A stretch of 39,449 bases of DNA, taken from IMG/VR virus record IMGVR_UViG_2671180847_000006, positions 1 through 39,449 of that record. One strand, 5' to 3'. This DNA comes from a virus. Its lineage: Duplodnaviria > Heunggongvirae > Uroviricota > Caudoviricetes. Numbering within the stretch: the first letter of the stretch is position 1; each line of letters opens with the position of its first letter. Position numbers: made by a program. This document shows, in pieces, positions 1 to 3,000 of this stretch.

Positions 1-3000
1 CTCCGGATACATGGCGTTAACGTCTGGCATTTTCATCAACGCTTCAACGATATGTCCGTCGAATGTTGCCATGTCTTCCTGCAACAATTCCTGGGCGCTA
101 ATAACCATCTCAACGGTGATGTTTTCACATGTGTCGGACTTAACCAGGACCGCGTTCTGTACTTCAGGGGACAGCTTGTCAAAATTGACGTTCATCGGAT
201 CGGATTCTGGTTCGACCGGAATAAAGGAAGCGCATTCCTCATCCCAGCGGTTTTCCTGCATATATTCGGTATCCCAGGAGTCAATGGCAGGGCGGGGCAT
301 GCCGGGTTTATCCTCACAGACAAGAAATTTATAAGCGCAGTCCTGAGCAGCCGGATATTGCTCCAGGAATTGCCAGGTAAATTTGGCTCGGGCGCGGCGC
401 TCGTCACCGGCTTCAATGGCAGTGGCCACAGCGACTGCACCTTCTTCCTTTATTGCCCGTTCGTCTGGAATAGCTGCACAAATAAAGACTTTATTCATTT
501 TGTTTTAACCTCATTACAGATTTAAGGGTGAACAAATCCCTGCCATTGCTGGCATATAAAAATGAAACCGGATGTTTATTTCGGTGCTGTTTTAAAGTCC
601 CGCCGGTATTTCGTTATTATTAGTGTGAGTAGCTTTATCTACCGGATAACAGTTACCGGGAATTTTTTGTTCTGCTGCTGCAGCCATGCATTCTTTCATT
701 GAACCGTATAAGCCAGTCACCATCTCAAGAGATTCGCCGGAAACAAGATAAACTGTCAGAACGAGTGCAAATGTTGTTTTCATTGTTTATATCCTTTTTG
801 CAGCAGGTCCAGACGAGCCAGCATTGAAGGAATGCATACTTCATTTAACAGGTCCTGCTCGAGTTTTCTCTGCTTAATGGCGTCTTCAATAAATGTTTTG
901 TCTCCAGTGATAACGCCAATTTCGAAACGAAGTTCAGACGTACTGGCATTGTATGATAACTTTTCCATTATCGCGTCCTCAACAATGAATTTTGTGATGC
1001 AGTGCCTGGTGCCTCCAGGTGACGTTAACCAGTTAACAATTAACGCCGGATACAGAGCATTCCCGTTACTCAGCAAATGACCGCTTTACCGATTTAACTG
1101 TTCCGCGTGCGCTGAGCCGCATTCACCGCATCACAAAATTCACTTTTAAAAAAGGGCGGCAGAGCAGTCACGGAGTAAAACTGATACCGCCAAATGTCAC
1201 CAGAATATTGATAACAGAGGGCGTTGCAGCGGGGTTGTCACTTAAGCGTATGGTCAACCTGACAACCCGGTGTCCTCAACGGGGAAAGAATAACCCCGCC
1301 ATACTTACCGCCGCGCCATTTCGCGGATTGCCACAACCGGAAGCGCACGGTCGAAGATGCCGGTGGCACGCAACAGAGGGAGAAATAACTTCGCCGTGCG
1401 CTTTCGCGTTATGCCCTGACTTTTCAGGGATATATCCTTTCAGTAAACTGCCAGTGCCGGATGCTCACCCGTGTCCGGCGCACGCACTCCACCTGACCCG
1501 TGGAGAACTCCTTAATTAACAACCCTCAGGAGGGTGATTTTGAACACAATAAAAACCACTATTAATAATGATTTATCCCATGATGGAATAAATGCTGAAT
1601 TAAGAGCCATTAAGCTCGCGATAGCTTTGATGGCAACAAGACTTCCGCCAGAACTTCGCTCAGAACGTGTAACAGATGCTTTAAAAAGCACAGGTGATAA
1701 ACATGCCACTGAATTAGCAAATCTGATCCAACAATTCATAGACGAGGCGAATTCTCAAAACTGATTGTTATTTCTTTCTGAAAACTTTTACTATCCAGGC
1801 ATTTTTTTGCTAACCAAATGCGGGCCTCTGTGCCTGCATTGGGTTCCAGTTCATGTAAGCGTTTTGCATCTTCCAGAAGCAAGGCAATAACGTGTTTAAG
1901 TTCTGTTTCATTCATCGTCAACCTCATCGGTCAGTAGTTTGCAATCACTCGCGAAACGTTTAATGCCGCTCTTTTTGCCAGAGTGGTAACATCTTGCTCC
2001 GCTGATGCCAGTTCTTTAGAGAGGCGCTCTTTGTAGTCAGCGGCCTGCTTCAGGTCATTAATGGCGCGTATCTTCCCGCACATCCATTCGTAAATTTCAT
2101 CATCGGTATAGTCTGGCGCGATGATGACGGGTTCTCGTTTCTGCATACTGATTCCTCGCGGTGATGTTTCGCTTATCAGCCGTTAGATTTTGCCGAGCTG
2201 GAAAGCGCCTGTTTAAACTCACTGAAGCTGAGAGCTTCTTCGCCTTCGGCAAGGCCTTCGAAGTATTCTTCGTAAGCCTTTTCCATGATTGTGTCGAAAT
2301 CCATATCACTCACCTGAATTTCTTTCCAGCCAGCGACGCGCGCCAGATTCGGTTTTAAACGTTTTGCTTTTGGTATACGTCATCGCGGTGAACGTACCGT
2401 CCTGGTTGAGAAACACGCCGTACACCAGAGATTCGTTGTTGCCAAGATCGATAGTATCCATGCTGACCTCATTTCCCCTTAACGCCGGGGTAGCGGAACA
2501 AAAACCTGCTGCATAGTTAAAGTTGAACCCTGCCGTCATGTTCTTACGCCTCGGGCTGGCTACTTAACCCCTGACCACTGCCTGGTAACTCGAAGTATTG
2601 CCCCGCATTCTGTGGGGCGGGGTGGGTTGGTATTTTTAGTTTAATAAACATTAAACTTAAGTCAAGTAAAAACTAAACCACGGAGCGTAACAAACACAAC
2701 GCTTTTGATAAAGTCGTTGCGGTTGTTATGTTTCTATTGGTAGTGAAAGTTAGGGAAACTGGCGTCTTGCGTGGATCACGTTTACTACTTCAACGCTTGA
2801 TGTTGTTACGCGGTATAGAATTATATAGTTAGGGTGGGCTACAATCTCACGCAAGCCAGGTACTCTGTCGCTTGGTGGGTATAAATACGGATGTTCGGAT
2901 AACGGCAGCACACAACCCCTTAATCGCTGCCATAAGCGTTCAGCCGCATCTATGTCGAAACGAGCAATATAGCTAGCTATATCATCTAGGTCGGTATCTG

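Follow-up and report, generated by a model that had tools for sequence, protein, structure and literature searches.

The window analysed here is the whole of the IMG/VR virus record IMGVR_UViG_2671180847_000006 (39,449 nucleotides), assigned to the Caudoviricetes, and the system of interest is the division-inhibitor module dicBF in its left arm, made up of the small RNA DicF and the protein DicB. The module lies on the minus strand among genes arranged as in the Qin prophage of Escherichia coli K-12, in the order ydfA-ydfB-ydfC-(insert)-dicF-dicB-ydfD-exonuclease, and all of the open reading frames (ORFs) of this operon were open (Table 1). An earlier note made from the sequence alone had placed a DicF-like small RNA with a terminator hairpin and U-tail at 1148..1206 (-), and a scan of the entire window with the Rfam covariance models, in which DicF was one of four matches above the curated thresholds, bore this out. 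The DicF model RF00039 was matched at 1205->1154 (-) with 77.0 bits (gathering score 48; E = 1.8e-15), was covered end to end (1-52 of 52) and contained no pairs flagged as non-canonical. Relative to the dicF of K-12 MG1655 (b1574), 51 of the 52 model positions were identical with G12A as the sole change, and the base at the would-be K-12 DicF 5' end also differed (U1A). The hairpin, followed by its run of six T, folded at -15.9 kcal/mol in the window and K-12 alleles alike, and DicF nt 13-53, the half that pairs with ftsZ, were identical to K-12.

The 62-residue DicB homologue proposed in the earlier note was recovered as an ORF of 62 codons (968->780, -) with GAGGA located 7 nt before its ATG. 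The product matched Pfam PF05358 at 127.1 bits (cut-off 27, positions 1-62 of 62, E = 2e-37) and NCBIfam NF049927, named 'cell division inhibition protein DicB', at 121.8 bits (cut-off 100), and 34 of its 62 residues (55%) were identical to K-12 DicB. The start at 968 was preferred because the ATG there has a ribosome-binding site and yields the 62 residues of the family profile, and a 98-codon ORF with a TTG start (780-1076) was rejected as the true dicB since its extension crosses the conserved leader helix described below. Between the hairpin end (1154) and the dicB ATG (968) there were 185 nt, or 179 nt when counted from the last T of the run, close to the 180 nt originally estimated, and the K-12 distance is 174 nt.

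The roles given for these genes in the earlier note, inhibition of cell division and a sugar-transporter-dependent change in phage susceptibility, agree with published work (PMC5069750, PMC6832061). Briefly, the 3' region of DicF base-pairs with the ftsZ ribosome-binding site and represses translation while the 5' end pairs with xylR (PMC5069750). DicB binds MinC and the complex is brought to ZipA at midcell, where the Z ring is dismantled, and through MinC it also blocks ManYZ, resulting in approximately 100-fold resistance to lambda and 434 and in poor growth on mannose (PMC6832061).

Two promoters with identical -35 and -10 hexamers were located by promoter scan, one PL-like and pointing into ydfA-dicF-dicB and the other PR-like, and both also featured a 12-nt block, TACTTGACTTAA, and an 11-nt palindrome, GTTTATTAAAC, in the orientation of transcription. 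Since the PL-like promoter shares the hexamers and sequence blocks of the PR-like one, dicBF is thus the early-left (PL) operon of the window phage. In the prophage CP-933P, PaaR2, YdaS and YdaT have been shown to act as CI, Cro and CII analogues and to make up a bistable switch, and a third promoter past the toxin-antitoxin genes, PL933P, is under PaaR2 and YdaS control and has the -35/-10 of PR933P together with operators resembling those of PR933P (PMC8630535). The two promoters of the window match this description. Lambdoid immunity regions were also noted to carry kil/dicB-type genes in the cI/paaR2 3' region (PMC8630535). By analogy, the PL-like promoter of the window would drive the whole operon and would be repressed by PaaR2.

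The proteins of the window's immunity region were closely similar to crystallised proteins of CP-933P from O157:H7, with an identical PaaR2 DNA-binding domain, 91 of 92 residues of ParE2 and a near-identical YdaT. Judged from these matches the region is of the CP-933P type (PaaR2-PaaA2-ParE2 / YdaS-YdaT) and not of the DicA/DicC type. The label 'Qin-type' that had been given to the module therefore holds for the ydfABC-dicF-dicB-ydfD cassette and does not hold for the repressor/Cro pair, which is PaaR2/YdaS. The paaA2-parE2 toxin-antitoxin pair occupies the position of lambda rexAB, and DicB/DicF occupy that of kil. Here PaaR2-PaaA2-ParE2 and YdaS-YdaT (2750-4435) make up the immunity region of an Stx2e phage that appears complete, and not of a cryptic prophage. 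Within the leader of approximately 170 nt between the PL-like promoter and ydfA is a GC-rich hairpin, GCCCC-ACAGAATGC-GGGGC (2600-2625, -), which has no T tail, lies outside the K-12-homologous region and could be a nut-like or pause element.

The module had been assigned to an Stx prophage, and the genes stxA2e/stxB2e were confirmed at 14272-15513. From 12338 onwards the window was 98% identical to the Stx2e phage phiP27 over the part compared, stxA2e included. No DicB was found in phiP27 by tblastn and the phiP27 early region had no match to the window, and the window is therefore a mosaic whose dicBF left arm came from another lambdoid lineage. Gene order across the window was lambdoid (exo, early-left, immunity, replication, Q, stx2e, lysis, morphogenesis), with a Q antiterminator, DNA methylase, two tRNAs, terminase and contractile-tail sheath present in that order. 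A prophage of the same type was identified at yccA in the pig isolate ETEC1746, where 82% of the first 25 kb was matched at 96.5% identity and the order was int, xis-like, exonuclease, ydfD, dicB, two small ORFs, ydfC, ydfB, ydfA, repressor and, further on, stx2e. Public genomes therefore include an uninterrupted Stx2e prophage whose left arm is dicBF. An origin of the window in two tandem prophages, as in the 'Stx2a + PPompW' records, was considered and rejected, the gene order being that of one continuous lambdoid genome as in ETEC1746.

Other features of the phage included the sok antisense RNA of a hok/sok type I toxin-antitoxin system in the nin region (9397-9572; Rfam RF01794, 121.7 bits against 59). 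Besides dicBF the window thus holds two toxin-antitoxin systems, hok/sok and ParE2-PaaA2, which may be compared with hokD and relBE of Qin. The two tRNAs are located just upstream of stxA2e, one with a CAT anticodon (13934-14009) and the other Arg-TCT (14111-14187), and the annotation of the ETEC1746 prophage lists three (Ile, 'other' and Arg).

Table 1. Features of the dicBF operon, the immunity region and the toxin genes in the window
Feature	Position	Strand	Evidence and remarks
RecE-type exonuclease gene, first 166 codons, cut by the window edge	498->1	-	phrog_2082
ydfD homologue, 63 amino acids	592..783	-	Pfam DUF1482, 67.9 bits; phrog_1092; 39/63 identical to K-12 YdfD
dicB, 62 amino acids, divergent allele	780..968	-	Pfam PF05358 and NCBIfam NF049927
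Structured dicF-dicB spacer, closed by a 20-bp helix	985..1143	-	Fold and pairing check
U-tail of the DicF intrinsic terminator, six T	1148..1153	-	Read off the sequence
dicF small RNA	1154..1206	-	RF00039; 53 nt, 5' start at 1206 by analogy with K-12
DicF terminator hairpin	~1191-1155	-	Minimum free energy fold, DicF nt 16-52
Untranslated dicF precursor, K-12-homologous	1207..1524	-	85.9% identity to K-12
Insert of ~410 bp, absent from K-12 Qin, between ydfC and dicF precursor	1525..1930		Homology break 1524-1937
Insert ORF, 74 amino acids, strong ribosome-binding site AGGAGG	1540-1764	+	Antisense to the dicBF transcript
Insert ORF, 59 amino acids	1736-1915	-	Convergent and slightly overlapping with the 74-residue ORF
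ydfC	1931-2146	-	40/72 identical to K-12
ydfB	2176-2304	-	42/42 identical to K-12
ydfA	2306-2461	-	49/51 identical to K-12; Pfam DUF1391
PL-like promoter, TTGACT / 16-nt spacer / TAAACT, operator-like palindrome GTTTATTAAAC	2638..2665	-	Promoter scan; points into ydfA-dicF-dicB
parE2	2750-3028	-	Pfam ParE_toxin; 91/92 residues identical to PDB 5cw7
paaA2	3030-3221	-	Pfam PaaA2
paaR2, CI-like repressor	3242-3613	-	Residues 1-65 identical to PDB 7nkv 'phage repressor protein CI'
PR-like promoter, TTGACT/TAAACT	3653-3682	+	Promoter scan
ydaS, Cro analogue	3711-4013	+	phrog_35; role from PMC8630535
ydaT, CII analogue	4010-4435	+	PDB 3c4r and 8bt1, E = 6e-89; role from PMC8630535
stxA2e, RIP-family A subunit	14272-15237	+	Pfam RIP, 100.8 bits
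stxB2e, Shiga-like toxin B subunit	15250-15513	+	Pfam SLT_beta, 146.6 bits

The region between dicF and dicB contained a helix of 20 uninterrupted base pairs (1143-1124 with 1004-985), all of them standard, whose end lies 4 nt ahead of the dicB Shine-Dalgarno sequence, and the same helix is present in the K-12 spacer. The fold of 960-1340 had a z of -4.3, the downstream flank of dicF was 84.3% identical to K-12, and the precursor upstream of dicF included a 9-bp hairpin (1268-1260 / 1240-1232, -). A sub-threshold Rfam match to STnc100 (31.6 bits against 47) was located in the spacer at 991-1140. Processing by RNase III in K-12 results in a 72-nt DicF with its end 19 nt past the terminator (PMC5069750). 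The corresponding end would map to approximately 1135 in the window, within the left arm of the helix, and the helix is by this analogy the probable RNase III site. In Shigella phage 75/02 Stx the same leader is located before kil, and not dicB (L007, ~1560-1772), which suggests a conserved processing or translation-control element that is common to different division-inhibitor genes.

In the same Shigella phage the dicF-homologous slot (L007, 1560-1620) held a GC-rich hairpin and T run other than those of DicF, with a different 5' part, and so did the slot in Stx2c-converting phages (L006, 1620-1680). Rfam gave no DicF match for this Shigella phage or for an Stx2c phage, even though the surroundings of dicF were matched there by blastn. 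The position of dicF thus resembles a slot for variable small RNAs in lambdoid early-left operons.

The remaining genes of the operon were as the earlier note had described them, with ydfA/B/C-like ORFs before dicF and ydfD/ydfE-like ORFs after dicB. The start of ydfD and the stop of dicB share 4 nt, an overlap also present in K-12. The exonuclease fragment matched positions 1-166 of the 823 positions of phrog_2082 (E = 1e-116) and was 85.8% identical in DNA to the K-12 ydfE pseudogene, which is the remnant of a RecE-type exonuclease gene, while related prophages carry a full-length exonuclease gene of 2.47 kb. An extended ydfA of 77 codons (2306-2539) was considered and rejected on grounds like those for the longer dicB ORF. 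DNA homology to K-12 extended over 1524..1 at 85.8% identity and over 2499..2070 at 95.6%. The two ORFs of the insert matched solely phrog_7249 and phrog_30817, both PHROGs of unknown function, and had no Pfam or NCBIfam match. A homologue search with the 74-residue ORF led to a single unnamed cluster, and both ORFs are annotated by the Prokaryotic Genome Annotation Pipeline (PGAP) in the related ETEC1746 prophage. A different ORF pair occupies the insert slot in the pig strain STEC388. No match to the PADLOC defence profiles was obtained for DicB, YdfA-D or the two insert ORFs.

When a 751-bp dicF-dicB stretch was searched against 5426 complete E. coli genomes, 4717 of them had matches (median two copies, maximum ten), other pig Stx2e prophages included, and 504 records matched at 95% identity or more, with dicB annotated there. 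Multiple O157:H7 prophages have been shown to carry dicBF (PMC5069750), enterohaemorrhagic E. coli (EHEC) has four copies of dicF (PMC7873438), and a functional temperate phage with dicB and dicF is on record (PMC10448788). Twenty records in the GenBank phage collection contained DicB, all with a K-type or PPompW-type allele, and in the 'Stx2a' records among them the DicB comes from the tandem PPompW prophage. Among the phage genomes on deposit, stx phages with a dicBF arm are thus uncommon, but in genomes the combination is not new, and the module itself is not special to this phage but present in most E. coli genomes. In the PGAP annotations of related prophages dicB was listed and dicF was not, so automated annotation under-reports the DicF small RNA. 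In STEC388 (L002, 2477-3444) a Rha-family regulator gene was inserted into dicB, leaving a partial fragment and a second intact copy, and by this insertion the dicB locus is a rearrangement hotspot.

The identity of both genes, the gene order, the promoter and operator sequences in common and the conserved processing helix were observed directly. On this evidence the locus is very probably a bona fide dicBF operon, transcribed as the early-left (PL) unit of an Stx2e prophage that is lambdoid and mosaic. For the repression logic, RNA processing and targets, experiments on K-12 Qin and CP-933P are the source of the following scheme. In the lysogen the CI analogue PaaR2 would keep the PL-like promoter (2665->2638) shut, and a flip of the PaaR2/YdaS switch would result in one long minus-strand transcript. 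RNase E and RNase III would excise DicF from this transcript, the 20-bp helix downstream of the terminator being the likely RNase III site, while transcripts that read through the DicF terminator would carry dicB and ydfD. DicF, with Hfq, would then place its 3' half on the ftsZ ribosome-binding site and halt FtsZ synthesis, and DicB would bind MinC and direct it to the ZipA-anchored Z ring for an immediate stop to division. DicB would also close ManYZ and so block DNA entry by lambda-type phages; the allele of the window, 55% identical to that of K-12, is expected to retain both the MinC and the ManYZ activities. The module would thereby be this phage's counterpart of the lambda Kil function.

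The predicted core duplex of DicF with K-12 ftsZ (-29 onwards) was equal for the window and K-12 alleles, the host ftsZ lying outside the window. The substitution G12A (window position 1195) falls in the 5' seed, where the predicted duplex with xylR (+8..+21) went from 12 bp to 7 bp and its energy from -16.7 kcal/mol for the K-12 allele to -11.2 kcal/mol, with the xylR of K-12 as the target. The Rfam consensus has A at this variable position, and G12A is therefore a common allele. From these predictions DicF alleles may differ in metabolic targets yet retain ftsZ.

Several points weigh against the early-left operon reading. The DicF terminator sits between the promoter and dicB, and neither an N-like antiterminator nor a nut site was found in the analysis of the window. 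The plus-strand ORF 1540-1764 within the operon could drive antisense transcription. The break that G12A makes in the predicted xylR duplex means that the DicF target set may differ, the DicB of the window is only 55% identical to the experimentally tested K-12 protein, and a PDB sequence search with DicB returned no solved relative for checking the MinC-binding residues. The window edge at position 1 hides the integrity of the exonuclease and any int/xis.

It is possible, if somewhat doubtful, that the module chiefly serves the lysogen, with low-level or bistable leakage from the PL-like promoter giving DicF regulation of the host and of virulence (metabolism; in EHEC pchA/LEE, the locus of enterocyte effacement, and stx2) together with superinfection exclusion of ManYZ-dependent phages by DicB, and with the division block merely a by-product of over-expression. 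In K-12, DicF builds up during stationary phase and approximately 1% of cells show spontaneous firing of dicBp (PMC10448788). Bistability has been described for the immunity region of CP-933P (PMC8630535), and DicB confers about 100-fold resistance to lambda (PMC6832061). In EHEC, DicF represses stx2A and activates pchA according to a review (PMC7873438), and the wide retention of the module in E. coli genomes noted above (4717/5426), mostly in defective prophages, is also consistent with such a role. A role in the lysogen is compatible with one in the lytic cycle and does not exclude it, and the early-left position under the phage repressor argues for strongest expression upon induction. Pairing of DicF with stxA2e was sought by a crude duplex-fold scan of whole DicF against the -60..+30 regions of 47 plus-strand genes of the window. 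There was no sign of pairing at the stxA2e start, which ranked 21 of 47 at -31.4 kcal/mol (mean -31.1, standard deviation 6.0), although the scan also failed to single out ftsZ, the control duplex of -36.6 kcal/mol being likewise within background, which makes the scan uninformative on this pairing.

That DicF is functional while DicB is a drifted allele of changed function, with MinC binding lost or another partner acquired, appears improbable. In comparisons with K-12, dicB (73.0%) and ydfD (75.5%) were the most diverged DNA segments, DicF was the highest at 98.1% and the non-coding flanks ranged from 84-91%, and the 55% amino acid identity would fit with drift. Identity to the DicB of the closest prophages (L002-L004) was 58-61%. 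DicB alleles were mosaic-looking, as in P0006 where a K-12-like N-terminus is joined to a window-like C-terminus. The gene is however intact, with exactly 62 codons and full-length matches to two curated profiles well above their cut-offs. An alignment of ten DicB alleles featured 14 invariant columns and 17 nearly so, the conserved columns including F15-I17-G18-V19, E28-D29-A30-I31, L40-L41-N42, C45-I46 and S48-M49-L50, and the protein falls within a named DicB cluster (82 sequences) at 97% identity. This pattern indicates purifying selection on a conserved core.

A joint reading, in which dicBF would be a working lytic and exclusion module of altered specificity, is very unlikely; the divergent DicB would have a shifted partner or target range, the G12A DicF would drop xylR and the DicF of the prophage would feed back on Stx2e expression, in keeping with the stx2A repression that a review reports for EHEC (PMC7873438), and if true the toxin phage would carry its own trans-acting brake on toxin output. 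Chance resemblance or an annotation artefact as the source of the DicF and DicB matches is refuted by their E values (1.8e-15 and 2e-37) and by colinear homology to the K-12 operon over approximately 2 kb.

The dicBF of the window is an ordinary and already described module, nothing in it departs from known biology, and its significance goes little beyond correct annotation. Upon induction the toxin phage would probably filament its host and close the ManYZ entry route. For the biology of Shiga toxin-producing E. coli, a DicF copy can travel with an stx2e phage, and DicF reportedly influences LEE and stx2 expression in EHEC.

Among known systems, lambda Kil is a small division inhibitor of the PL operon that is made on induction and hits FtsZ ring assembly through ZipA (PMC3961180). 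The DicB of the window is likewise a small PL-operon division inhibitor, although the two sequences are unrelated and Kil acts on FtsZ without MinC. We know of no small RNA partner of lambda kil. The coliphages mEp460_ev081, Tritos, vB_EcoS-640R1 and others have dicF and dicB in the same slot as the window, but their DicB, 55-58% identical to that of the window, belongs to the K-12 type and none carries stx. The first of these was isolated as a functional temperate phage and is reported to have DicA/DicC/Rem-type immunity (PMC10448788).

The dicBF of K-12 Qin resembles that of the window in gene content and gene order, in its layout on a single strand downstream of a phage repressor gene, in the near identity of DicF (51/52), YdfA (49/51) and YdfB (42/42), in a similar dicF-dicB spacing and in the 20-bp helix. 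It differs in DicB, YdfD and YdfC (55%, 62% and 56% identical) and has no 410-bp insert. The promoter regions are non-homologous, homology ending 38 nt upstream of ydfA, and DicA/DicC of Qin stand against the PaaR2/YdaS repressor/Cro pair of the window with ParE2-PaaA2 lying between. Qin is a 20-kb remnant with a ydfE pseudogene, whereas the phage of the window looks complete and its exonuclease gene shows no visible sign of being a pseudogene.

CP-933P / Sp12 of E. coli O157:H7, compared through its proteins and published description, has PR/PL-like hexamers and repeats of the GTTTAGT / GTTTA..TAAAC type as in the window, and also a division-inhibitor gene downstream of the repressor operon. 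CP-933P is defective and without stx, and in the window such a cassette is found together with an stx2e late region of phiP27 type. The likeness to phiP27 (AJ298298 / NC_003356) covers the methylase, tRNAs, stx2e, lysis genes and the terminase onwards. As a mosaic, the window is best summed up as an early-left dicBF operon of Qin type and an immunity region of CP-933P type joined to late genes with stx2e of phiP27 type.

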